From a virus (taxonomy: Duplodnaviria; Heunggongvirae; Uroviricota; Caudoviricetes), in the IMG/VR virus record IMGVR_UViG_2541047907_000002, positions 1 through 47,077 of that record: 47,077 bases of DNA; one strand, written 5' to 3'. The position numbers and the translations under genes were made by a program. Positions 1 through 23,469 of this stretch are shown piece by piece (position 1 is the stretch's first letter; each line of letters starts with the position of its first letter). The notes beneath the pieces were generated by a model that saw nothing but the letters and a program-made list of their open reading frames with translations, made no database searches and had not been told where the DNA came from.

Positions 1-1131
1 TCAAATGACCAGTTTTTTCCACTCCTTACCGCGTGCATCGTTGTAAATATCAGTCATTTTTTGATTCGAATGACCTAGCAAAATTTGGGTATCAATTCCC
101 TGCTCTCTGAACAATCGCTCCGATAAAGATCTCTGCTCATGGAAAGAGGGTGGGGTGCCATTAGCACGCCAGTTGTAATCCACAGAATCCCGCGCTTTTT
201 TAAATGCAACGGTTAACGTTGCTGGCTTAACCATCCCGCCGCGCTTAGCTGTCCCTTTCGCGTGATGATGGTGCAATAGCCACGGACTAAGAACGCAATC
301 GCGACAGGATGACACCACATCATCCAGGGTGAGATTTAATTTATCGCAACGCAGAACCAGAGGGATGGCAATCCGGGTTCCTGTTTTTTGCTGTTCGACA
401 TGAAGATAACCATCCCGGATATCCGAAAATTGCATTTTGCAAATATCTGAAAGGCGCTGGCCTGTCACCAGTGCCAGCAGCATGCCGCGCTGTAAAAAGT
501 AACCATCCTTTTCCGCTGCGTTATAAATCATCATCCACTCATCAAAAGTCAGTCGCTGTCTTGATATCCGCACCTGCGGTTTTTTTGCCGATTCTGCAGG
601 GTTAAAGCCTGGCGGGACATCGCCTGTTTGCTGAGCTTCCCGGAAAACATCGATCAGCACCTTCCTGAAAATTTGTCCCATTCTGTTATGTCCTCTGGCC
701 TTGTACTCTTCCAGCACCGATACCACATCTTTTACGGTTATGGCATCTAACGGTCTGGTGCCAAAACGTTCATCAAATACCCTGAGAGGGGCCGCTTTTT
801 GTTTCAGCGTGTTGAGTTTGATCTCTCCGTTTTCATATCTTTCCTGTTGAATTTTTCTGTAATTATTCAGAAAAATGGAAACAGTTGATGAACCGCCGGT
901 ATCATTAATAATTTTCTCCTGCAGACTGAGCATTTGTTCCATTTGCTGCCTGGCAAGACGGCTGTTCGCTTCTGCTGCAATAGTTTCTGCCAGTTTCTGG
1001 TCAATACTGCCGAGACCGTGATTTTTGCCTGTTATGGGATGCCTGTAACGCCAGTAAACTTTGTTATTTCTTTTGTCAAAATATGGAGATAATCCCGGAA
1101 CATCGGTTTTATATTTTCGCGGGCGCGCCAT
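1..1131 (-). CDS. int: Phage tyrosine integrase (site-specific recombinase)
   Basis: 376 aa ORF at the prophage edge; C-terminal LLGHSNQKMTDIYNDA segment fits the tyrosine recombinase catalytic region (H..Y); start overlaps the upstream small basic ORF, the usual xis-int arrangement. Confidence 0.85.
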   Translation of the reverse strand: MARPRKYKTDVPGLSPYFDKRNNKVYWRYRHPITGKNHGLGSIDQKLAETIAAEANSRLARQQMEQMLSLQEKIINDTGGSSTVSIFLNNYRKIQQERYENGEIKLNTLKQKAAPLRVFDERFGTRPLDAITVKDVVSVLEEYKARGHNRMGQIFRKVLIDVFREAQQTGDVPPGFNPAESAKKPQVRISRQRLTFDEWMMIYNAAEKDGYFLQRGMLLALVTGQRLSDICKMQFSDIRDGYLHVEQQKTGTRIAIPLVLRCDKLNLTLDDVVSSCRDCVLSPWLLHHHHAKGTAKRGGMVKPATLTVAFKKARDSVDYNWRANGTPPSFHEQRSLSERLFREQGIDTQILLGHSNQKMTDIYNDARGKEWKKLVI

Positions 1132-7183: not shown

Positions 7184-7603
7184 TTAAGAGGCTTTTTGTT
7201 TTTTCTTTCGTGCTAACTCTTCGTAAATTGCATTGTACTTCTGTTTTTTCTCCTCAAGAGTTTTTAAAAGTTCATCTGTCTCACTGTCAGGGAGCTCGTC
7301 CAGAAGATCAATGATGATTTTTTGTCTTGGATTTAACTCCTGATAGAAACGTACCTGTCCACTTTCTTCTGTATCCTCTCCCAAAAGATAGGTTGGTGTT
7401 GTTCCAATGAGTGTTGCTAATTCCCTTAATTTCTCTCGGCGAGGAATTGTTTCGCCATTAAACCATTTGCTAACCGCTTTTGGTGTTAATTTCATTCGAC
7501 GGGCAATTTCTGCCTGCCTTCCATGTTGTTCATAACCAGCGTTTTCACAGGCTAGCGCAAGCCTACTGGCGAACTCTTTACGCGCTTTATCTTCATGAAC
7601 CAT
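7184..7603 (-). CDS. Phage repressor, XRE-family helix-turn-helix (cI/DicA-like)
   Basis: 139 aa; N-terminal HTH segment QAEIARRMKLTPKAVSKWFNGETIP; divergently arranged with a Cro-like gene. Confidence 0.8.
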   Translation of the reverse strand: MVHEDKARKEFASRLALACENAGYEQHGRQAEIARRMKLTPKAVSKWFNGETIPRREKLRELATLIGTTPTYLLGEDTEESGQVRFYQELNPRQKIIIDLLDELPDSETDELLKTLEEKKQKYNAIYEELARKKKQKAS

Positions 7604-14888: not shown

Positions 14889-15248
14889 ATGCGTATAGAG
14901 TTTGTTTTGCCTTACCCGCCGACGGTGAACACCTACTGGCGACGTCGTGGCAGCACATATTTTGTATCAAAAGCCGGTGAGCGTTATCGCCGTGATGTGG
15001 CGCTTATTGTTCGCCAGCAGCGACTGAAATTAAACCTGTCCGGAAGGCTGGCAATAAAGATTATTGCAGAGCCACCGGATAAGCGCCGTCGTGACCTGGA
15101 CAATATTCTGAAAGCACCACTGGATGCACTGACACATGCGGGGTTGCTTATCGACGACGAGCAGTTTGATGAAATCAATATTGTGCGCGGTCAGGTCGTT
15201 CCTGGTGGTCGGCTGGGGATAAAAATCACAGAACTGGAGTGCGCATGA
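14889..15248 (+). CDS. rusA: RusA-family Holliday junction resolvase
   Basis: 119 aa beginning MRIEFVLPYPPTVNTYW with later DLDNILKAPLDAL segment, typical RusA; AGAGG upstream. Confidence 0.8.
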   Translation: MRIEFVLPYPPTVNTYWRRRGSTYFVSKAGERYRRDVALIVRQQRLKLNLSGRLAIKIIAEPPDKRRRDLDNILKAPLDALTHAGLLIDDEQFDEINIVRGQVVPGGRLGIKITELECA

Positions 15249-15934
15249 ATAACCAGTATTTACAGTTTGTTCGTGAGCAACTCATGATTGCCACCACCGA
15301 TTTGAGTGGATCAACAAAAGGGCAGCTTGAGGCCTGGCAGGAGAATGCCATGTTTGATACAGGGCGTTACAGGCGTAAAAAAATCCGGTACCGCGATGAA
15401 GTGACCGGAAAAATGATAACGCTGGATAATCCACCAATCCCGGGGAAACAATCGCTGGCGAAGGGGACGTCAATTCCTCTGGTAAGTCAGGTTGAGTTTT
15501 CGACATCATCATGGCGACGGGCAGTTCTGTCTCTTGAAGAACATCATAAAACCTGGTTGTTGTGGTGTTACAGCGGAAGTATTTGCTGGGAGTATCAGAT
15601 CGCGATAACACAGTGGGTGTGGAATGAATTTAAGGCGCAATCCGGTACCAGAAAAATTGCAGGGAAAACGCTGGAGCGCCTGAAAAAATTAATCTGGCTG
15701 GCGGCACAGGATGTGAAGAGTGAGCTGGCTGGGCGTGAAACTTATGAATATCAGGAACTGGCATTACTGGCGGGTGTGACAACAAAAAACTGGTCCAAAA
15801 CATTTACTGGTCACTGGGTTGCAATGAAAGACATTTTCCACCGGCTGGATAGTGAGGCCTTATTGTTTGTGATGAGAACACGTTCAGAACAAAAGACGGC
15901 ATTTTCAAAGAAAAGTATTGCAAAAGTAGATTAA
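15245..15934 (+). CDS. Putative late-gene antiterminator Q
   Basis: 229 aa; ATGA overlap with rusA; position (after rusA, before the late/lysis region) and Cys/Trp-rich core fit the Q family. Confidence 0.6.
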   Translation: MNNQYLQFVREQLMIATTDLSGSTKGQLEAWQENAMFDTGRYRRKKIRYRDEVTGKMITLDNPPIPGKQSLAKGTSIPLVSQVEFSTSSWRRAVLSLEEHHKTWLLWCYSGSICWEYQIAITQWVWNEFKAQSGTRKIAGKTLERLKKLIWLAAQDVKSELAGRETYEYQELALLAGVTTKNWSKTFTGHWVAMKDIFHRLDSEALLFVMRTRSEQKTAFSKKSIAKVD

Positions 15935-15998
15935 AAGGCATATATTTCTTGCCAAATCTGATATTTTGCCGATTTTGTACGTGATGGCAAAGTAAGCA

Positions 15999-16023
15999 AA
16001 ACCCGCCGCCGAGCGGGTTTTTT
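15999..16023 (+). terminator. Intrinsic terminator (tR'-like), copy 1 of a repeated terminator-leader module
   Basis: Stem AAACCCGC/GCGGGTTT with 6 nt loop followed by TTTTTT; about 65 nt after the Q stop. Confidence 0.5.
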
Positions 16024-16146: not shown

Positions 16147-16344
16147 ATGCTAAAACAGCAGGATATGACCGAAACCGCCAGAGTGGTATTTAATGAATTA
16201 AGTGTCACCGAACCGGCGACCGTCGGGGAAATTGCGCAGAATACTTACCTTTCACGCGAACGCTGCCAGTTAATACTGACCCAGCTTGTTATGGCGGGTC
16301 TGGCAGATTATCAGTTCGGTTGTTACAGACGCCTTCCGCAGTGA
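16147..16344 (+). CDS. Small protein (65 aa), possible winged-helix regulator
   Basis: MLKQQDMTETARVVFNELSVTEPATVGEIAQNTYLSRERCQLILTQLVMAGL; a paralogous copy lies at 19791-20015. Confidence 0.45.
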   Translation: MLKQQDMTETARVVFNELSVTEPATVGEIAQNTYLSRERCQLILTQLVMAGLADYQFGCYRRLPQ

Positions 16345-16494
16345 AGGCTTTTTAATTTGTGGTAATGGGCGGCTGGTGGGTGTTAGCGGCACCTGCCAGC
16401 CATCTGCTCATGCGTTGGGATCACAAGCAAACCTCAGGCCCATCTGCTTTGCGCAAAAGCAGAATGAGCCTATCAGAGAAGTGCTTATTGATCT

Positions 16495-17547
16495 ATGGTT
16501 GATACTGTAAAAATATCCAGTTGTGAGTTGGTCAACGCTGATTGCCTGGAATTTATCCGGACCTTACCTGAAAACTCTGTCGATCTGATAGTCACGGACC
16601 CACCATACTTTAAAGTGAAACCTGAGGGCTGGGATAACCAGTGGAAGGGCGACGATGATTACCTGCAATGGCTGGACCAGTGTCTGGCGCAGTTCTGGCG
16701 GCTACTGAAGCCTGCCGGAAGTCTCTACCTGTTCTGTGGGCATCGCCTGGCATCTGATATCGAAATCATGATGCGTGAGCGCTTTAATGTGCTTAACCAT
16801 ATTATCTGGGCTAAGCCGTCCGGACGCTGGAACGGGTGCAACAAGGAAAGCCTGCGGGTGTATTTCCCTGCCACAGAGCGCATTTTGTTTGCAGAACATT
16901 ATCAGGGACCGTATCGCCCGAAAGATGATGGCTATGAGGCGAAGGGCAGGGCACTGAAACAGCATGTGATGGCCCCGCTGATTGCTTACTTTCGTGATGC
17001 GCGTGAATCACTGGGAATAACGTCAAAACAGATAGCGGAAGCTACCGGAAAGAAAAACATGGCTTCCCACTGGTTCAGTGCCAGTCAGTGGCAGCTGCCG
17101 AACAAAGGCGATTATCTGAAATTACAGGCGCTGTTTGCCCGGGTTGCCGAAGAGAAGCATCAGCGCGGTGAACTGGAAAAGCCGCACCACCAGCTGGTCA
17201 GCACATACAGTGAACTGAACCGGCAATATGCCAGTCTGCTGGAGGAGTACAAATCTCTTCGGCGTTATTTTTCCGTATCGGCTGCCGTTCCGTATACGGA
17301 TGTCTGGACGCACAAGCCCGTGCAGTATTATCCGGGCAAACATCCATGTGAAAAACCGTCGGATATGTTGCGTCAGATAATTACCGCCAGCAGTCGTCCG
17401 GGTGACCTGGTTGCGGACTTTTTTATGGGGTCGGGGTCAACAGTAAAAGCAGCACTGGCGCTGGGGCGCAGGGTATTAGGTGTTGAGCTTGAGTCAGAAC
17501 GTTTTGAGCAGACAGTGAAAGAGGTAAGTGGTCAGGGGTATATTTGA
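16495..17547 (+). CDS. Orphan DNA methyltransferase, beta-class (N6-adenine or N4-cytosine)
   Basis: 350 aa; N-terminal IVTDPPYF (motif IV) and C-terminal FFMGSGST (motif I) in the beta-class order; no restriction endonuclease candidate nearby. Confidence 0.75.
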   Translation: MVDTVKISSCELVNADCLEFIRTLPENSVDLIVTDPPYFKVKPEGWDNQWKGDDDYLQWLDQCLAQFWRLLKPAGSLYLFCGHRLASDIEIMMRERFNVLNHIIWAKPSGRWNGCNKESLRVYFPATERILFAEHYQGPYRPKDDGYEAKGRALKQHVMAPLIAYFRDARESLGITSKQIAEATGKKNMASHWFSASQWQLPNKGDYLKLQALFARVAEEKHQRGELEKPHHQLVSTYSELNRQYASLLEEYKSLRRYFSVSAAVPYTDVWTHKPVQYYPGKHPCEKPSDMLRQIITASSRPGDLVADFFMGSGSTVKAALALGRRVLGVELESERFEQTVKEVSGQGYI

Positions 17548-17667
17548 TAACAAAATCTTAAATATTTCGCTCATTTATTGTTAGCGTTCTTAATATTGGG
17601 TATTTTCAACAGTGCAGGATAACCCTGTAACGAAACTTAATCTGGTTCCATCATGAAAGTCTTTGCC

Positions 17668-17700
17668 AGTAGTCTCCGGATGGCTGGCTTTTTTTTGCGC
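17668..17700 (+). terminator. Putative intrinsic terminator downstream of the methyltransferase
   Basis: Short stem GCCAG/CTGGC followed by T8 (GCTGGCTTTTTTTT). Confidence 0.4.
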
Positions 17701-17780
17701 CAAATCGAAAATATTTTACAGTCTGATTGTGTGGGCGTATTTTTGTGATTTTTGTAACGTTTTCAGGCGTTTTGTATTAA

Positions 17781-18001
17781 TAGACTTTTTTCAGCGGCGC
17801 ATCCCGTGACGCAGCGGGGTTGAATGGCTGGTCTCCTTCACAAGCGCATACTGCGTGGAATCGCACAGCGGGTCATGGTTTAAGCCAGCCAGTGACTCAT
17901 CGGTAAAAATCCGACGCCGTCATGCTAATGACTATTCCATACTATCTGTCTGAATCCTGAGTGTCCTGAAGCCGGTAAATGAACTCTGTTACCGGCTTTT
18001 T
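17781..18001 (+). ncRNA. Candidate small RNA unit A (paralog of unit B)
   Basis: No ORF of 60 aa or more on either strand; conserved 5' block CAGCGGCGCATCCCGTGACGCAGCGGGG and internal block CCAGTGACTCATCGGTAAAAATCCGACGCC shared with unit B; ends in a 10 bp stem AAGCCGGTAA/TTACCGGCTT plus T5; upstream TGTATTAAT resembles an extended -10. Confidence 0.3.
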
Positions 18002-18189
18002 ATATCGGTATGTTGTGGAGATGCCGAAAGCCTCACATTTTTTGTGGTTGAATATCACCCTGTGAGTGAAAATAAGGTGCAGATAAAAAACTGCATGGTT
18101 TTTGCGTAATATCAAAAAAGCATTCCAGCCCCACAGGCTTTATAATTTTTTGTGATAGCCATAACTTTTCAGAATGTTCTGTGTTTTGT

Positions 18190-18400
18190 AGACTTTTTAA
18201 AGCGGCGCATCCCGTGATGCAGCGGGGCTGAGTGGTCAGGGGTTCCTTCAGATGTACAATTCACAGAAACACTCAGTGGGCCATGGTATTTGGCTGCCAG
18301 TGACTCATCGGTAAAAATCCGACGCCGCTGCTCCTTGTTCTTCACATGGTTTTCTTAGCGTATTTTAAGCCGGTTGATAAACTCCACTTCCGGCTTTCTT
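18190..18400 (+). ncRNA. Candidate small RNA unit B (paralog of unit A)
   Basis: Same two conserved blocks as unit A with divergent middle and 3' parts; ends in stem AAGCCGG/CCGGCTT followed by a T-run. Confidence 0.3.
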
Positions 18401-18754
18401 TTTTCAGTATATTACGGAGACTTAAGGTTTCTCTTTCAATCAGGTCTGATACGACTCGCAGGTGCAGGATTCGTTTAGAAGAACACCATGTAAACGCCCT
18501 TCAGCTCAGGGGCGTTTACCGGGAGGCATTTAATGCCATATGTGAGGTGACAAATCAGATAACACGCGCGTCATGGGAAAAAACGGTTAAGCAATTCCAT
18601 GACACTCTGGTGGTTCGGTTTGACATTGAAGAGGCATGGGCGGAGCGGCAGTTAAAAAAGGTAACCAGATAACAAGGTTGATTTTTCCGGAATCTGTGGT
18701 AAATTCACCCTAACGATGGGCGTTTTATGCCTGACGTTAGAAGAATTTTTACAG

Positions 18755-18776
18755 CCCGCCATAGAGCGGGTTTTTT
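18755..18776 (+). terminator. Intrinsic terminator, truncated copy 3 of the terminator-leader module
   Basis: Stem CCCGC/GCGGG followed by TTTTTT; next ~45 nt resemble the leaders after the terminators at 15999 and 19647. Confidence 0.4.
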
Positions 18777-18911
18777 GTGCCCGAAAAGCGGTGCATAACG
18801 TTAAACGTGATGGCGATTGTGCAATGAGTTTCTCCTGCTCTGAAGTCTCTTGACTGCATGGAATCTCCTTTGTTATGTAAGGTGAGTCAATGTTTTTAAA
18901 TTGTTAGAGAT

Positions 18912-19631
18912 ATGGGTATGGATGACAGCACTCTACTGAGGAACTCTTCACTTTTTATTGCTTATATGGGCTGTCTTGGATGGGGAAGCGCTTATTTCTA
19001 TGGATGGGGTACTTCCTTTTACTATGGCTTTCCATGGTGGGTTGTCGGGGCTGGCGTTGATGATGTGGCCCGAAGTTTGTTTTATGCAGTTACAGTTATC
19101 GTTATATTCCTTATTGGATGGGGAGTTGGTATTGTTTTCTTTTTAGGTATAAAACAAAAAAACAATATACAGAATTTGAGTTTTATCAGACTTTTTCTGG
19201 CAATATTGCTGCTTTTTATTCCACCCGTTCTGGAGTTTTCGGTAATTCATCAGTTCGTTGAGCCAGATGTACTGATTTTTTGTGTTATTGCGGCCTTTAC
19301 AATTACGCTTTTTATCAGGTCAGGAAGAAGGCTTATTTCAGTCAAATGCTTTTCGGAAGTGTCTTTTATTCGCCATCACCGAATTGAGTTTATGATGGCT
19401 GGATTCATGATTTATTTCTGGACATTTTCTCTTATTGCCGGTTGGTACAAACCCCAGTTTAAGAGGGAGTATCAGGCGATCCACTATGAGAATGTCTGGT
19501 ATTACGTTCTTGCACGCTATGATGATCGTCTGGTTTTATCTAAATCGTACAGGCACGGTAGTACGAATTTCGTTATACTTAATAGCGCAAATACAGATAA
19601 TTTTGAAATTAACATTGTCAGAGTGCGTTAA
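18912..19631 (+). CDS. Multi-pass membrane protein of unknown function
   Basis: 239 aa with several long hydrophobic segments and aromatic/Gly-rich stretches; sequence looks AT-richer than the flanking phage genes by inspection. Confidence 0.5.
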   Translation: MGMDDSTLLRNSSLFIAYMGCLGWGSAYFYGWGTSFYYGFPWWVVGAGVDDVARSLFYAVTVIVIFLIGWGVGIVFFLGIKQKNNIQNLSFIRLFLAILLLFIPPVLEFSVIHQFVEPDVLIFCVIAAFTITLFIRSGRRLISVKCFSEVSFIRHHRIEFMMAGFMIYFWTFSLIAGWYKPQFKREYQAIHYENVWYYVLARYDDRLVLSKSYRHGSTNFVILNSANTDNFEINIVRVR

Positions 19632-19790
19632 AATCTCCTGAGTAATACCCGCCGTTGAGCGGTTTTTTTTATGCTCCAAAAGCGGTGTGGTATATTAAAC
19701 GCGCTGGCGGTTGCGAATACCGGTTTTCAGCTCGCTGGCTTTTTCGACAAGATTATTGGTATGTCACGTTATCCTGAAAAGGTAAAAGAC

Positions 19791-20015
19791 ATGTTAAAAC
19801 AGCGGGATATGACAGAAACCGCCAGATTTGTGTTTAATGAGTTAAGCGTCAGCGAACCCCCGACGGTCGGGGATAGTGCGCAGAATGCTTACCTTCCACG
19901 AGAACGCTGTCAGTTACTCCTAACTCAGCTTGTCATAGCTGGGCTGATGAGTGTTAGCGGCACCTGTCAGTCATTTGCTTATGTGTTGATGAGAATTTAC
20001 TTTTTGGGGCTATAA
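19791..20015 (+). CDS. Paralog of the 65 aa small protein, with an altered C-terminus
   Basis: First ~48 residues closely match the protein at 16147-16344; an apparent ~78 bp deletion relative to copy 1 fuses the reading frame to downstream sequence; preceded by terminator-leader copy 2 (about 19647-19668). Confidence 0.4.
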   Translation: MLKQRDMTETARFVFNELSVSEPPTVGDSAQNAYLPRERCQLLLTQLVIAGLMSVSGTCQSFAYVLMRIYFLGL

Positions 20016-20051
20016 TTAAGCTAACCAATTGCTAATTAAAGTAAAATCATA

Positions 20052-20765
20052 ATGGATGTTGTCTGTTCAGTTATCATGGTTTGCTCCCCAATTAATATTT
20101 TTCTTGAAAAGGATACGTTGTCACTTAAGCCCGGCTCAATCGTTCTGGCCACCAAATGCATCAGGGAGCTTTTCCTTATGCATTATGGCAAAGTTAAAAT
20201 TGTCGATATAAGCCATTCTATAGTAAGTCAATATCTGGAAAGCCAGCATAAGCTGACAAGAGGTCCTCTGACTGACATTCCGCTTTACTTGTTGCTGGAC
20301 CCCAACAATCCTGCGTTGGCTGCGGCTTTAATTACCAGCCAGAGATTTTCCGGAGAGATCACGGATATGTTTCTTATGATGGCCTGCCTGTCGCTGTTTG
20401 AATCAGATGAACGGATGTCATTATTTTTAATTGGATGTGTATCCAGTATAAGTGTCAAAGTCAGAGCGATAATTCAAACAGATATATCAGCAAGCTGGAC
20501 GCTTGGTGCGATTGCTCTACAGTTGCATATGAGTGAGAGCTTGTTAAAGAAAAAACTCAAGGATGAAGGTCTCAGGTTCAGTAATTTGTTACTTGAGGAA
20601 CGGATGCGGGTTGCTGTAAATATGTTATGTTCCCGGCATGGATATGGACAGGCTCTAGCAGAAAAATGCGGTTATTCAAGTAGGTCCTACTTTATCTCTG
20701 TATTTCACCGCTATTATGGCTTCCCGCCAGACAGATATGTATCTATGCAAAGGCTTGATTTTTGA
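20052..20765 (+). CDS. AraC-family transcriptional regulator
   Basis: 237 aa; C-terminal double-HTH region WTLGAIALQLHMSESLLKKKLKDEG...GYSSRSYFISVFHRYYGFPPDRY typical of AraC/XylS. Confidence 0.7.
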   Translation: MDVVCSVIMVCSPINIFLEKDTLSLKPGSIVLATKCIRELFLMHYGKVKIVDISHSIVSQYLESQHKLTRGPLTDIPLYLLLDPNNPALAAALITSQRFSGEITDMFLMMACLSLFESDERMSLFLIGCVSSISVKVRAIIQTDISASWTLGAIALQLHMSESLLKKKLKDEGLRFSNLLLEERMRVAVNMLCSRHGYGQALAEKCGYSSRSYFISVFHRYYGFPPDRYVSMQRLDF

Positions 20766-20792
20766 TTTCATCTGATTACTATTTTTCGATCC

Positions 20793-20868
20793 GGCCCTTT
20801 AGCTCAGTGGTGAGAGCGAGCGACTCATAATCGCCAGGTCGCTGGTTCAAATCCAGCAAGGGCCACCA
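20793..20868 (+). tRNA. tRNA with CAU anticodon, ileX-like (Ile2/lysidine type)
   Basis: Hand-folded cloverleaf: acceptor GGCCCTT/AAGGGCC, D-stem GCTC/GAGC, anticodon loop CTCATAA, T-loop TTCAAAT, 3' CCA; very similar to E. coli ileX as recalled. Confidence 0.8.
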
Positions 20869-20869
20869 A

Positions 20870-20946
20870 CCGCCACTAGCTCATCAGGAAAGAGCATCAA
20901 CCTTCTAAGTTGACGGCGCGAGGTTCGAGTCCTCGGTGGTGGGCCA
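20870..20946 (+). tRNA. tRNA-Arg (UCU anticodon)
   Basis: Hand-folded: acceptor CCGCCAC/GTGGTGG (one G-U pair), anticodon loop CTTCTAA, T-arm CGAGG-TTCGAGT-CCTCG, 3' CCA; unusual C1 start. Confidence 0.6.
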
Positions 20947-20948
20947 GT

Positions 20949-21024
<76 letters not shown>

Positions 21025-21027
21025 TAT

Positions 21028-21102
<75 letters not shown>

Positions 21103-21449
21103 ACATTTGCAAAAGCCTTATTGCAGCACTGGCGTATTTTTTATTACGTGGGAGCAGGGAAGGCATCCTGTTCTCTGGCTAAGATTTTGGGCCAGGTTAG
21201 CCTCAGTGCTGGATTTTTTACGACAGCAGAATGGTGCATTATCGGTGGAGATTTTGTTTTTCCTGGCAGGGGCGGTGATGCATCATTCTGGTGTTGTAAA
21301 TAACACTGTCGGGGTGTTCCTCAGAGCGAGGGTGGTTAAAAGAGTCGGTTTAGCGGGAAATCACAGTATTCATACAGGACGGAATACTTCGGGAGGCACC
21401 CGACACCTCGGTTTTATTACAATTAAGAATGTATCTCTTGCATTGACCA

Positions 21450-21474
21450 ACCGCCGTATCCGGCGGTTTTTTTA
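21450..21474 (+). terminator. Intrinsic terminator downstream of the tRNA array
   Basis: Stem ACCGCCG/CGGCGGT with 4 nt loop followed by T7. Confidence 0.5.
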
Positions 21475-21633
21475 TTCGATTTCTTCATGGTTCGCTATTG
21501 TGGACCTTTTCCACGTATTTTCTGGCGGTTATTATGACGGCTTGTTTCTTTGTTCATAAGAGGATTGATGCTGTGATCTCTTATGCAGATATCAGAGCAA
21601 AACAGGCCGAAATTCTGAAGGCTGAGCAGGAAT

Positions 21634-22014
21634 ATGTTCAGCGGTTGCGGGATACAGCAAAAAAAGCTGGTCAGTGCTTATGAAGATTCTCTGGAATTGC
21701 CTGCTTCACAGTGGTGCGATATTAACGGAAAAGAACGCCCGTATGTTCATATTTTGTGGAATGGGCACAATACAAAACCTGAGGATTTGCGGGTAGAGCT
21801 TCAGGATGGTGTTGCATTTGATTTGTGGACTGTCGTTGATGATAACCCACGTCAGTCTGCAAGCATGAAGATTGGCATACAGATTCTGTTGCTTGATGGC
21901 GACAACATAACGATTTCAGTTGATGGCTATCAGGCCAGAACATTTTCGCACGTAGATACGGACGCAAAAATTAACGAGATATGCGAGTTCATCAAAGACA
22001 GTATTTTAATGTAG
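21634..22014 (+). CDS. Hypothetical protein (126 aa) upstream of the lysis cassette
   Basis: ORF between the terminator and the holin; start ambiguous because a second frame (GTG about 21573) overlaps and meets it at an A7 run (21659-21665). Confidence 0.4.
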   Translation: MFSGCGIQQKKLVSAYEDSLELPASQWCDINGKERPYVHILWNGHNTKPEDLRVELQDGVAFDLWTVVDDNPRQSASMKIGIQILLLDGDNITISVDGYQARTFSHVDTDAKINEICEFIKDSILM

Positions 22015-22261
22015 ATGAATGATGTGAAATTTGACAAAGCATCTCTTCCGAAGATAGAAGGCTGGAGTCGTAATAAAGGAATCGTTCGAAAATCTCTGAA
22101 TCATCGGGCTGCGCACTTGCGCGGCCTTTTTTATATCCGCGCCACGTCCGGCGCACATCACATCAGATAACACCACACAAAAGGTATCTGCGGGTGCCTT
22201 TGACGGGGTGTTGTTTTTTACGGGCCGACAGTGGCCCTTTTTTATTTACAGGAGAAAAAGT

Positions 22262-22654
22262 ATGTCTGAACCCTTATCCGGTTCCGGCACGGCTGCGGCG
22301 CTCGGCGGGGCGACGGTATTCGGGCTGTTTACCGGAACGGATTTCGGGATAGTGTTTGGCGCATTTGCCGGTGCACTGTTCGTGGCCACGATACCGCAAG
22401 CGCTTTCAGCCTGGCGGGTGGCAGCGCATTTTCTGGTGTCGTTTATTGTCGGCGTGCTGGGCGCGGATGTTCTGGCATCCTGGCTGGTAAAGCATACAGA
22501 GTTTAACAGTGCGCCTGTCGACGCATTGTGTGCAGTGCTGGTATCAGTGGTGTCGGTGAAGATTCTGTCGTTCATCCACCAGCAGGATATCGCATCACTG
22601 GTATCCGGCCTGTTCTCGCGCCTGCGGGGCGGAGGAGGTGGCAATGTTAAGTAA
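22262..22654 (+). CDS. Putative holin (multi-pass membrane protein)
   Basis: Start ATG 22262 preceded by AGGAGAAAAAG; 3-4 Gly-rich hydrophobic segments; directly upstream of the endolysin. Confidence 0.5.
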   Translation: MSEPLSGSGTAAALGGATVFGLFTGTDFGIVFGAFAGALFVATIPQALSAWRVAAHFLVSFIVGVLGADVLASWLVKHTEFNSAPVDALCAVLVSVVSVKILSFIHQQDIASLVSGLFSRLRGGGGGNVK

Positions 22655-22922
22655 CCTTCCCGGCTTGCTGAATGTGGCGTTATGCACGGTTATCGTGCTG
22701 ACGCTCTTTTTTTATCGTCGTCGCGATTCCAGACATAAACCACTGATGTCATGGCTGGCCTGGCTGCTGATGCTGCTTTATGCCTTTGCGCCCCTCAGTT
22801 ATCTGTGCGGACACTTCCCGCCGGGTAACTGGCTGGTGGTGTTTTTTAACCTGCTGGTCTGTGTGCTGGTGATACGCGCACGCGGGAACGTTTCAAAAAT
22901 CCTTGTATTACGAAGGCGCTGA
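22644..22922 (+). CDS. Second holin-like small membrane protein
   Basis: 93 aa with three hydrophobic segments and a basic C-terminal tail (RARGNVSKILVLRRR); GGAGGAGGTG upstream; overlaps both neighbours. Confidence 0.4.
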   Translation: MLSNLPGLLNVALCTVIVLTLFFYRRRDSRHKPLMSWLAWLLMLLYAFAPLSYLCGHFPPGNWLVVFFNLLVCVLVIRARGNVSKILVLRRR

Positions 22923-22923
22923 T

Positions 22924-23469
22924 ATGAAGTTGAAAGATGAAATTTTTGACGAAGTTCTGGGAAAAGAGGGCGGCTACGTCAATCATCCGGACGATAAAGG
23001 CGGACCGACAAAATGGGGTATTACGGAAAAAGTCGCCCGCGCTCACGGATATCGCGGCGATATGCGTGACCTGACGCGCGGGCAGGCGCTGGAAATACTC
23101 GAGGCGGATTACTGGTATGGCCCGCGATTTGACCTGGTGGCAAATCTGTCGCCGGATATTGCTGCTGAACTGTGCGACACGGGGGTGAATATGGGGCCGT
23201 CGGTGGCGACGAAGATACTTCAGCGCTGGCTGAATGTGTTCAATCAGGGCGGGAAGCTGTATCCGGATATGGATGCAGATGGACGAATCGGGCCGCGAAC
23301 CATGAATGCACTGCGTGAATACCTGCAGAAACGGGGCAGGGACGGAGAACTGGTGTTACTGAAATCGCTGAACTGCACGCAGGGTGACCGTTATCTGGAA
23401 CTGGCAGAGAAACGCGAGGCCAATGAGTCGTTTGTGTATGGCTGGATGAAAGAGCGTGTTGGTCTGTAA
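22924..23469 (+). CDS. Endolysin, glycoside hydrolase family 108 (N-acetylmuramidase) with C-terminal peptidoglycan-binding domain
   Basis: N-terminal EGGYVNHPDDKGGPTKWGIT is the GH108 signature as recalled; start ATG 22924 preceded by GAAGG. Confidence 0.75.
   Translation: MKLKDEIFDEVLGKEGGYVNHPDDKGGPTKWGITEKVARAHGYRGDMRDLTRGQALEILEADYWYGPRFDLVANLSPDIAAELCDTGVNMGPSVATKILQRWLNVFNQGGKLYPDMDADGRIGPRTMNALREYLQKRGRDGELVLLKSLNCTQGDRYLELAEKREANESFVYGWMKERVGL

Follow-up and report, generated by a model that had tools for sequence, protein, structure and literature searches.

The DNA considered here is a 47,077-nucleotide (nt) stretch of Caudoviricetes sequence (IMG/VR record IMGVR_UViG_2541047907_000002, positions 1 to 47,077), hereafter the window, which by gene content and gene order is a lambdoid prophage or phage genome. 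The subject of this analysis is two neighbouring accessory genes, one for a putative inner-membrane protein of the STM1630 family and the other for an AraC/XylS-type regulator of the Psr family. Both open reading frames (ORFs) were confirmed at their exact coordinates on the plus strand and encode 239 and 237 amino acids (aa), respectively. They occupy the 6.3-kb interval from the antiterminator gene Q to the holin genes, at the start of the late operon. This Q-to-lysis interval is the cargo site of lambdoid prophages, and in Shiga-toxin phages it holds stx. A first-pass annotation of the same DNA had described the genes as an AT-rich pair inside the late region; they do lie within the late operon, and their position can be refined to its very start, with Q (15239-15934) before them and the genes for holins and endolysin (22208-23469) after them. 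The two genes and the promoter-like site between them are as follows:

18912-19631, plus strand: gene for an STM1630-family inner-membrane protein, probable start at 18918 (PHROG 1521; PF27470 label; AlphaFold2 model)
19989-20016, plus strand: promoter-like site ATGAGA-16-TATAAT, 36 nt 5' of the regulator ATG (10/12 match)
20052-20765, plus strand: psr, gene for a Psr-family AraC/XylS-type regulator (Pfam HTH_AraC and HTH_18; identity to PsrA)

The first impression that the two genes are AT-richer than their neighbours was borne out by windowed GC content and by codon usage, in both of which they are distinct. The membrane-protein gene has a GC content of 0.389 (0.375 at third codon positions, GC3) and the regulator gene one of 0.417 (GC3 0.429), against 0.508 for the whole window, 0.54 for positions 24296-47077, and GC3 values mostly between 0.53 and 0.60 for sampled structural genes. 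When all 720-bp windows were scanned, the lowest value (0.378) was found to begin at 19080, within the membrane gene; 0.4% of such windows are as low as 0.389, and 4% are as low as 0.417. The codons AGA and AGG account for 57-62% of arginine codons in the two genes versus 11% in late genes, a roughly five-fold difference. Codons read by four adjacent tRNAs (ATA, AGA, ACA, and GGA) are about twice as common in the two genes as in late genes, a comparison based on small counts. By GC, GC3, and codon usage, both genes are of foreign origin.

The assignment of the second gene to the AraC family was upheld. Its product ends in a double helix-turn-helix (HTH) that matches both HTH_AraC (PF00165; 46.6 bits, cut-off 26.6) and HTH_18 (PF12833; 39.4 bits, cut-off 33.6), and its best matches among solved DNA-binding domains in the PDB are GadX (the best), Rns, CsvR, and ToxT. 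The best NCBIfam models are those of YdeO (aligned to residues 1-230) and GadX, neither of which reaches its equivalog cut-off (105.3 vs 348 bits and 89.9 vs 500 bits, respectively); by these scores the protein is a relative of YdeO and GadX and not an orthologue. A much closer relative is ECs1087 of prophage Sp4 in E. coli Sakai, the gene described as psrA (PMC13502914). The two proteins, both 237 aa long, are 87.4% identical, and the genes are 91.7% identical at the nucleotide level over 237 codons without a gap, with a ratio of nonsynonymous to synonymous substitution rates (dN/dS) of 0.32. The same order of small ORF, psr, and tRNAs is found downstream of Q in Sp4, in S88, in an O145 strain, and in Stx2e, Stx2d, and Stx2k prophages; in Sp4 the full order is Q, a CAAX-type membrane protein, the small ORF, psrA, and ileZ-argN-argO. 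The window psr DNA is 98.3-98.6% identical to copies that lie directly upstream of tRNA genes and stx2e, stx2d, or stx2k. About 110 nt 5' of psr, including the TATAAT box, are nearly invariant in seven psr loci, exceeding the conservation of the coding sequence. Genes of this type are widespread, with psr-like genes present in 726 of 5426 complete E. coli genomes at a median of two copies. By this homology and synteny, the regulator is a new allele within an already known family of prophage regulators, Psr.

Members of this family have been studied in some depth. By inducing GadE and YhiF, PsrA and PsrB repress type III secretion; a cis-element of the hdeA promoter between -132 and -45 is where PsrB and PatE act, with direct binding reported for PsrB (PMC10877973). 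Deletion of psrA alters secretion and colonisation (PMC10877973), and because the deletion has a phenotype, psrA must be active from the prophage state. The psrA mRNA responds to HnrS, a small RNA (sRNA) that represses Hha (PMC13502914), and six more Psr homologues were previously noted in E. coli of the enterohaemorrhagic (EHEC), enteropathogenic, and neonatal-meningitis types (PMC10877973). The earlier suggestion of a lysogenic-conversion regulator, made without database searches, has thus gained a specific footing, namely 87% full-length identity to, and synteny with, PsrA, a published regulator of GAD genes and type III secretion. By homology, we infer that the window psr would activate gadE and hdeA, raise acid resistance, and indirectly repress the enterocyte effacement locus (LEE).

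A different view would give both genes an ordinary late role in the lytic cycle, for example in lysis timing or in control of late transcription; they would be silent in lysogens and convert nothing. Their location speaks for it: between Q and the holins, both must be transcribed by the Q-antiterminated polymerase, and in prophages of the IHE3034 type the membrane gene is the first gene after the late promoter PR' and its terminator tR'; the window copy has no predicted promoter of its own. The findings on psr point the other way, in that psrA deletion phenotypes arise in uninduced EHEC lysogens, psrA mRNA is detected and regulated there, and the psr promoter block is conserved. Both genes are also dispensable, being missing from related phages, and foreign in composition, and the membrane family has chromosomal members without phage context. 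A purely lytic role for the two genes is accordingly regarded as unlikely.

The first-pass annotation had treated the genes as one conversion module, and this part of it did not hold. The slot upstream of the small ORF, psr, and tRNAs is filled by unrelated genes elsewhere: Sp4 has a CAAX protease there, S88 a WYL protein, and the O145 strain an ORF6N protein. Each of the two genes occurs without the other, psr alone in Sp4, S88, and O145 and the membrane gene alone in IHE3034 and 08-00022. A single contiguous match over at least 80% of positions 18700-20900 was found in only 18 of the 5426 complete E. coli genomes; the membrane gene is present in 454 of them and psr-like genes in 726. The closest relatives of the two genes also differ. 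When both are compared with one set of prophages, Stx2e and Stx2d, identity is about 98.5% for psr and about 90% for the membrane gene, whose best match (94.5%) comes from a strain without psr at the site. Because these identities are discordant, a recombination breakpoint is placed between the two genes, in the repeated leader that separates them.

An operon or a regulator-target pair, in which the AraC-type protein controls or works with the membrane protein, would nonetheless find some points in its favour. The genes are adjacent and on the same strand; co-transcription is plausible here, where the intervening terminator is weak (-5.7 kcal/mol) and the small-ORF terminator is deleted; and a metagenome contig, like the Stx2e and Stx2d prophages, has the same pair. 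Set against this are the frequent occurrence of each gene alone, the differing relatives, and the roughly 420 nt of leader, small ORF, and separate conserved promoter that lie between the two, which together make a functional module quite improbable. The comparison instead favours two independent cassettes, whose adjacency would stem from cassette shuffling.

The presumed joint for such shuffling is a repeated terminator-leader element. A copy of it had been noticed before each gene, which the present analysis corroborated and extended: copies made up of a GC-rich hairpin and a T-run end at about 18776 and 19670, a third ends at about 16023, and a conserved leader follows each. The elements of this repeat system and its promoters are as follows:

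15918-15946 and 15998-16023, plus strand: candidate late promoter PR'1 (TTGCAA-17-TATATT) and tR' copy 1, a hairpin with T-run (promoter scan; fold -14 kcal/mol, z -2.45)
16147-16344, plus strand: small ORF copy 1, 65 aa, winged-helix-like, intact, with its own terminator at 16331-16353 (PHROG 331, E = 1.4e-37; weak TrmB match)
18346-18672, plus strand: ORF containing the 3' remnant of a second Q gene, of lambda-Q type (Pfam PF03589 Antiterm, residues 60-100 only; PHROG 127/14186)
18678-18776, plus strand: orphan promoter PR'2, TTGATT-16-TGgTAAATT followed by AACGATGGG, a hairpin, and tR' copy 2 at 18753-18776 (sequence read directly; terminator scan)
18777-18911, plus strand: leader of the membrane gene, whose first ~60 nt are module repeat (repeat family; promoter scan)
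19649-19670, plus strand: terminator copy 3, directly 3' of the membrane gene, with a weakened stem (-5.7 kcal/mol, z -0.35)
19671-20015, plus strand: leader copy 3, with small-ORF copy 3 starting at the ATG at 19791 (repeats; alignment of seven loci)

The three copies form a 63-nt repeat family with 68-83% identity. Copies 1 and 3 have an additional 170 nt in common at 83%, including the small ORF, and copy 2, before the membrane gene, consists of the terminator and about 60 nt only and is preceded by the Q-gene remnant and a PR'-like promoter. The region of PR'1 and tR' copy 1 is collinear with the Q-proximal region of an Stx2d prophage, and the tR' terminator of the window is homologous to that of the Sakai Stx2a prophage Sp5. 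The second-Q homology extends from about 18480 to the stop codon, that is, over the last ~60 codons, and aligns with Q genes that are intact (273 aa) in IHE3034, 08-00022, and an Stx2e prophage; the upstream remainder of the ORF is fortuitous, and the 108-aa ORF at 18346-18672 was accordingly rejected as a gene. In IHE3034-type prophages, Q, promoter, terminator, and leader are all collinear with the stretch that runs from the second-Q remnant through the membrane-gene leader.

The orphan PR'2 unit is conserved in four other prophages. Its promoter and the following AACGATGGG have what we take to be the lambda PR' arrangement, with a promoter-proximal pause element (AACGAT). A Q protein is specific for its cognate qut site. 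Since the cognate Q is truncated here and the resident Q belongs to another family, PR'2 is probably an orphan constitutive promoter whose transcripts mostly end at 18776. For the predicted ~65-nt RNA, the fold has two hairpins (-27.5 kcal/mol, z -3.75). PR'1, for its part, should give an RNA of about 71 nt; together with the PR'2 RNA, it would resemble in kind the prophage sRNAs StxS and HnrS. The former arises in lysogens from a constitutive PR' whose transcript is stopped at tR' (PMC7547250).

The leader at 18777-18911 is nearly invariant across five loci, one of which has a different Q and PR', and a promoter scan of it returned no consensus sigma-70 promoter. A candidate in this leader, TTGACT-17/18-TTATGT(A), was rejected as too weak and was not called by the scan. 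Terminator copy 3, between the membrane gene and psr, has lost one G-C pair and is no more stable than shuffled sequence. Downstream of it, a 74-nt deletion with its junction at about 19946/19947 (relative to 16299-16372) has removed the C-terminal codons of small-ORF copy 3 and its terminator; this deletion was not seen in the six other psr loci aligned. Because terminator copy 3 is weak and the small-ORF terminator is deleted, read-through from the membrane gene into psr should be easier here than in relatives. A metagenome contig (L011) carries an identical 114-aa small ORF, which suggests that it shares the deletion. The 106-aa and 114-aa forms of the small ORF were themselves rejected as coding, the copies differing by 1-nt indels upstream of the MLKQ start at 19791.

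The membrane protein, for which no recognisable family had initially been seen, does belong to a named one. It matches PHROG 1521 (E = 7e-88, residues 19-239), each of the 105 homologues found carries a precomputed Pfam label, PF27470, and a 90% identical E. coli prophage homologue (WP_000342736.1) is named 'STM1630 family protein' in RefSeq. Homologues start at the second ATG, at 18918. The protein matched no model in the Pfam and NCBIfam sets searched, and a literature search on the PF27470 name, 'TfpB', gave no paper tying it to this protein; the TfpB of the literature is an unrelated type IV pilus ATPase, and nothing was deduced from the name. The Salmonella enterica arizonae gene of the family is 49% identical over residues 3-239. 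It adjoins a Zn-dependent alcohol dehydrogenase gene and an sseJ-like gene, whose product has a Sif/SopD N-terminal domain and a GDSL lipase domain, as SseJ does. Because the arizonae locus shows the STM1630-sseJ arrangement, membership in the STM1630 family is confirmed.

The family is small, with 73 members among 1.84 billion cluster representatives in an exhaustive profile search, yet it is found in varied settings. The membrane gene is present in 454 of the 5426 complete E. coli genomes (8%). In Yersinia, IHE3034, and 08-00022 it comes first after Q, and it also occurs on IncFII-type plasmids. In Citrobacter rodentium it has a fixed chromosomal site adjoining the same Zn-dependent alcohol dehydrogenase gene as in arizonae, and a further member lies at a chromosomal, non-phage site in Haemophilus ducreyi. 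The exact protein of the window is on record only on the metagenome contig mentioned above, with the same downstream genes. In E. coli CFT073, a frameshifted, N-terminally truncated copy lies with a tRNA-Arg gene among insertion-sequence elements, beside the iro salmochelin island (L014, 4001-4635); this copy is what is left, within a pathogenicity island, of the same prophage cargo region. A 59%-identical family gene was also found on a 3054-bp contig binned as a metagenome-assembled genome of Veillonella sp. (L017); instead of a Firmicute homologue, this is most likely an enterobacterial or phage contig binned in error.

Structure prediction gave a partial picture of the protein. An AlphaFold run with 28 close homologues was unusable (mean predicted local distance difference test score, pLDDT, 59.6), and 17 distant members from a hidden Markov model search were then added; the AlphaFold2 model from a 37-sequence alignment reached a pLDDT of 84.8 and a predicted TM-score (pTM) of 0.79. 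It contains helices at residues 12-38, 49-80, 91-113, 118-140, and 157-183, followed by a C-terminal five-stranded beta domain of about 55 aa. Positive charges are concentrated in the loops at 81-93 and 136-157, which suggests a cytoplasmic N-terminus and a periplasmic C-terminal beta domain. A Foldseek search of the model against the PDB and BFVD returned nothing with an E-value below 0.1. Its top matches, to MscS, the HIV integrase C-terminal domain, and a UvrD Tudor-like domain, had query TM-scores of 0.15-0.2 and are at most a hint of a small SH3-like beta barrel in the C-terminal domain; the family sequence profile found no match among PDB sequences. Conserved motifs lie at both ends of the protein (N-terminal GWGSAYFYGWG..YYGFPWW and C-terminal YKPQFKKEY..WYYVLAR).

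Superinfection exclusion or anti-phage defence at the inner membrane was weighed as the function of this protein, the former having been raised at first reading along with a transporter-like role. The protein is polytopic and present at the cargo site of many lambdoid prophages, its gene also travels on plasmids, and the same slot in Sp4 holds a membrane protein of the CAAX/CPBP ('Abi') type. Moreover, its N-terminal aromatic and glycine-rich segment is highly conserved and its middle variable, a pattern that would suit such a role. On the other hand, PADLOC gave no match for the membrane protein or the regulator, although a new type of exclusion protein would escape such models, and the model resembles no solved or predicted viral structure. 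The gene also lacks a predicted promoter of its own, and the family occupies fixed chromosomal non-phage sites in Salmonella, Citrobacter, and H. ducreyi, with a virulence-associated regulon in Salmonella. Exclusion is therefore considered a rather doubtful function. In Salmonella, STM1630 is among the genes co-regulated with Salmonella pathogenicity island 2 (SPI-2); it was selected for follow-up from intra-macrophage RNA-seq, its own promoter was mapped, and its deletion was without effect on intracellular replication. One screen linked it to hypermotility; a follow-up held polar effects of the resistance cassette responsible for part of the motility effects seen in that screen. Because the family also lives outside phages, at chromosomal sites in Salmonella and Citrobacter, a host role is ranked above a lytic-cycle one, and our preferred guess is that the protein acts in the host envelope or in host fitness and not in the phage cycle.

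Parts of the region look degenerate, and the two genes might be decaying, functionless remnants in a mosaic prophage that is itself degenerating. A truncated Q, a truncated small ORF, and an ~840-bp segment without matches in E. coli genomes or phage records lie nearby, and the CFT073 copy of the membrane gene is a pseudogene. Both ORFs are, however, full length and free of frameshifts, with dN/dS values of 0.13-0.32 against several homologues (0.13-0.22 for the membrane gene) that indicate purifying selection on both, and the window otherwise has a complete-looking set of phage genes, comprising integrase, repressor, replication, Q, lysis, terminase, portal, and tail genes. Decay of the two genes is hardly credible on these grounds.

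The explanation that we prefer, with a probability of roughly 0.7 for the whole of it, is that two separate, horizontally acquired accessory cassettes occupy this lambdoid cargo site. One would consist of a tR'-type terminator, leader, small ORF, promoter, psr, and tRNA cluster; judging by homology, psr would be expressed in the lysogen through a conserved sigma-70 promoter of its own. By binding AT-rich promoters (gadE, hdeA) in the GAD acid-fitness island of the host, Psr would raise acid resistance, and in hosts with LEE it would repress type III secretion via GadE. The other cassette would comprise the truncated Q, PR'2, tR' copy 2, leader, STM1630-family gene, and weak terminator, and would have arrived with the end of the lambda-type Q gene that originally belonged to it. 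Its product is predicted to be a polytopic inner-membrane protein with five transmembrane helices, an N-terminus inside, and a small SH3-like beta domain that is probably periplasmic. During lytic growth, Q-modified polymerase from PR'1 would read through all three terminator copies and transcribe both genes; in the lysogen, the membrane gene would receive only terminator read-through from the orphan PR'2. The repeated terminator-leader would act as the shared recombination joint at which cassettes are exchanged.

Several considerations weigh against this explanation. The promoters and terminators of the element are consensus predictions, and the membrane gene has no recognisable promoter behind a tR' copy 2 that looks strong, such that it may be silent in lysogens. 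That the resident Q would be unable to use PR'2 follows from the general specificity of Q for qut. The function of Psr is carried over from 87%-identical proteins and would depend on a host that has the GAD island or LEE. For the membrane protein, the periplasmic placement of the C-terminal domain comes from the positive-inside rule applied by hand, and no published STM1630 phenotype is robust. A bolder version would see in the STM1630-family protein an envelope protein of a new type, with a fold absent from solved structures, whose gene lambdoid prophages would carry in first place after PR'-tR', in some cases directly upstream of stx2e and stx2d. The protein would be made in lysogens by terminator read-through from a constitutive late promoter (here the orphan PR'2) and would confer phage exclusion or an envelope or host-interaction trait linked to the SPI-2-type regulon of its Salmonella homologue, and PR'2 and tR' copy 2 would yield a ~65-nt StxS-like regulatory RNA; this we regard as speculative and not very likely.

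Comparison with known systems helps to place the two cassettes. PsrA in Sp4 corresponds to the window regulator in its AraC/XylS double HTH, its 237-aa length, its AT-rich gene, its upstream promoter block, and the order Q, variable gene, small ORF, psr, tRNA. The two loci differ in that the window allele is distinct and closest (97% aa identity) to the copies directly upstream of stx2e, stx2d, and stx2k, in that an STM1630-family gene stands upstream where Sp4 has a CAAX-type gene, and in the truncation of the window small ORF. Other AraC-type regulators of acid resistance include the chromosomal YdeO and GadX, which align to the window protein, and the prophage-derived AppY; the published Psr/PatE target regulon overlaps that of YdeO and GadX (PMC10877973). 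STM1630 itself, an uncharacterised Salmonella gene next to sseJ, agrees with the window membrane protein in length, predicted topology, and N- and C-terminal motifs; it is chromosomal with its own mapped promoter, whereas the window copy is prophage-borne and lies directly behind PR'-tR'.

The stx slot of 933W, Sp5, P27, and the Stx2k phage has the same succession of Q, PR', tR', cargo, tRNAs, cargo, and lysis genes. In contrast to these, the window has no stx, with only a 126-aa ORF (PHROG 5091) between tRNAs and holins, and the slot is doubled, with two tandem Q-PR'-tR' units of which the second Q is truncated. The classical morons of lambda, bor and lom (the concept is that of Hendrix), are likewise dispensable, compositionally foreign, present or absent among related phages, and terminator-bounded. 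As to the own promoter and terminator expected of a moron, psr has the conserved ATGAGA-16-TATAAT, and the psrA phenotypes published for lysogens bear on the same point; the membrane gene has only the imported PR'2 and a strong terminator, all of these sites being predictions. In contrast to bor and lom, the membrane gene seems to depend on the late promoter with which it was imported, none having been predicted for the gene itself.

The two cassettes sit in an otherwise conventional phage genome, whose remaining features of note are as follows:

1-1131, minus strand: lambda-type integrase gene
7184-7603, minus strand: HTH repressor gene
15239-15934, plus strand: resident antiterminator Q gene, marking where the late operon begins (Pfam PF06323 Phage_antiter_Q, E = 1.6e-92; PHROG 304)
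16495-17547, plus strand: DNA methyltransferase cassette, in the first moron slot (Pfam N6_N4_Mtase, E = 4.9e-43)
20793-21102, plus strand: tRNA cluster of a CAU anticodon (called Met; equivalents annotated ileZ), Arg-UCU, Thr-UGU, and Gly-UCC, which closes the conserved psr-tRNA unit (ARAGORN; Rfam tRNA)
21634-22014: 126-aa ORF between tRNAs and holins, where stx would be (PHROG 5091; no Pfam match; GC 0.43)
22208-23469: two holins and a GH108 endolysin

Replication genes, DUF968, and RusA follow the repressor and lead up to Q; downstream of the lysis genes come a P22-type antirepressor and then lambda-type terminase, portal, and tail genes up to the end of the window. The cargo that follows the resident Q begins with PR'1, tR' copy 1, and the 65-aa small ORF with its terminator, and continues with the methyltransferase, the ~840-bp segment, and the second-Q remnant. 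Parts of the window are 98-99% identical to E. coli genomes, and from these identity levels the host should be Escherichia or a close relative; for positions 18700-20900, the best complete E. coli genome covers the region at 92%. Over 21103-22210, identity to A19, an E. coli strain that came from a vampire bat, is 98.8%.

The ~840-bp segment (17640-18480) gave no megablast match in the 5426 complete E. coli genomes, and phage records match only its first ~90 nt. It contains two diverged direct copies of an element of about 200 nt, 408 nt apart (17763-18370), which match the Rfam sRNA family STnc100 at 27.6 and 22.5 bits, below the gathering score of 47. A third sub-threshold match of this kind (27.1 bits) lies just 3' of the tRNA cluster, at 21283-21477, and has only short blocks in common with the other two. 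The tRNA set itself (a CAU tRNA of Met/Ile2 type, Arg-UCU, Thr-UGU, and Gly-UCC) lies at the position of the ileZ-argN-argO set of Sp4 and the Stx phages and differs from it in content, and IHE3034 has Ile-Lys-Thr-Gly.

The finding is real but largely ordinary: the regulator family is well described, and the membrane protein, itself uncharacterised, falls into a named family. The STM1630-family gene is widespread, in 8% of complete E. coli genomes, beside sseJ in Salmonella, and on plasmids; it is a reasonable, though not urgent, target for functional work. The locus also illustrates how a cargo site may grow, with whole Q-PR'-tR'-cargo units stacked by recombination at the shared terminator-leader, leaving behind truncated Q genes and orphan late promoters.

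In the Stx2e and Stx2d prophages, an STM1630-family gene, the small ORF, and psr lie directly 5' of the tRNAs and stx2, and the Stx2k phage has psr alone (loci L001 6202-9743, L002 6156-9705, and L003 3481-5804). Through Psr-type regulators, prophages rewire the acid resistance and type III secretion of their hosts. With psr directly upstream of tRNAs and stx2, a GAD/LEE-rewiring regulator and toxin genes are linked within about 2 kb, and since the window allele is almost identical to the copy upstream of stx2e, stx2d, and stx2k, a few kilobases can carry toxin conversion and GAD/LEE rewiring together. This psr-stx linkage is relevant to prophage typing and risk assessment in Shiga toxin-producing E. 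coli.

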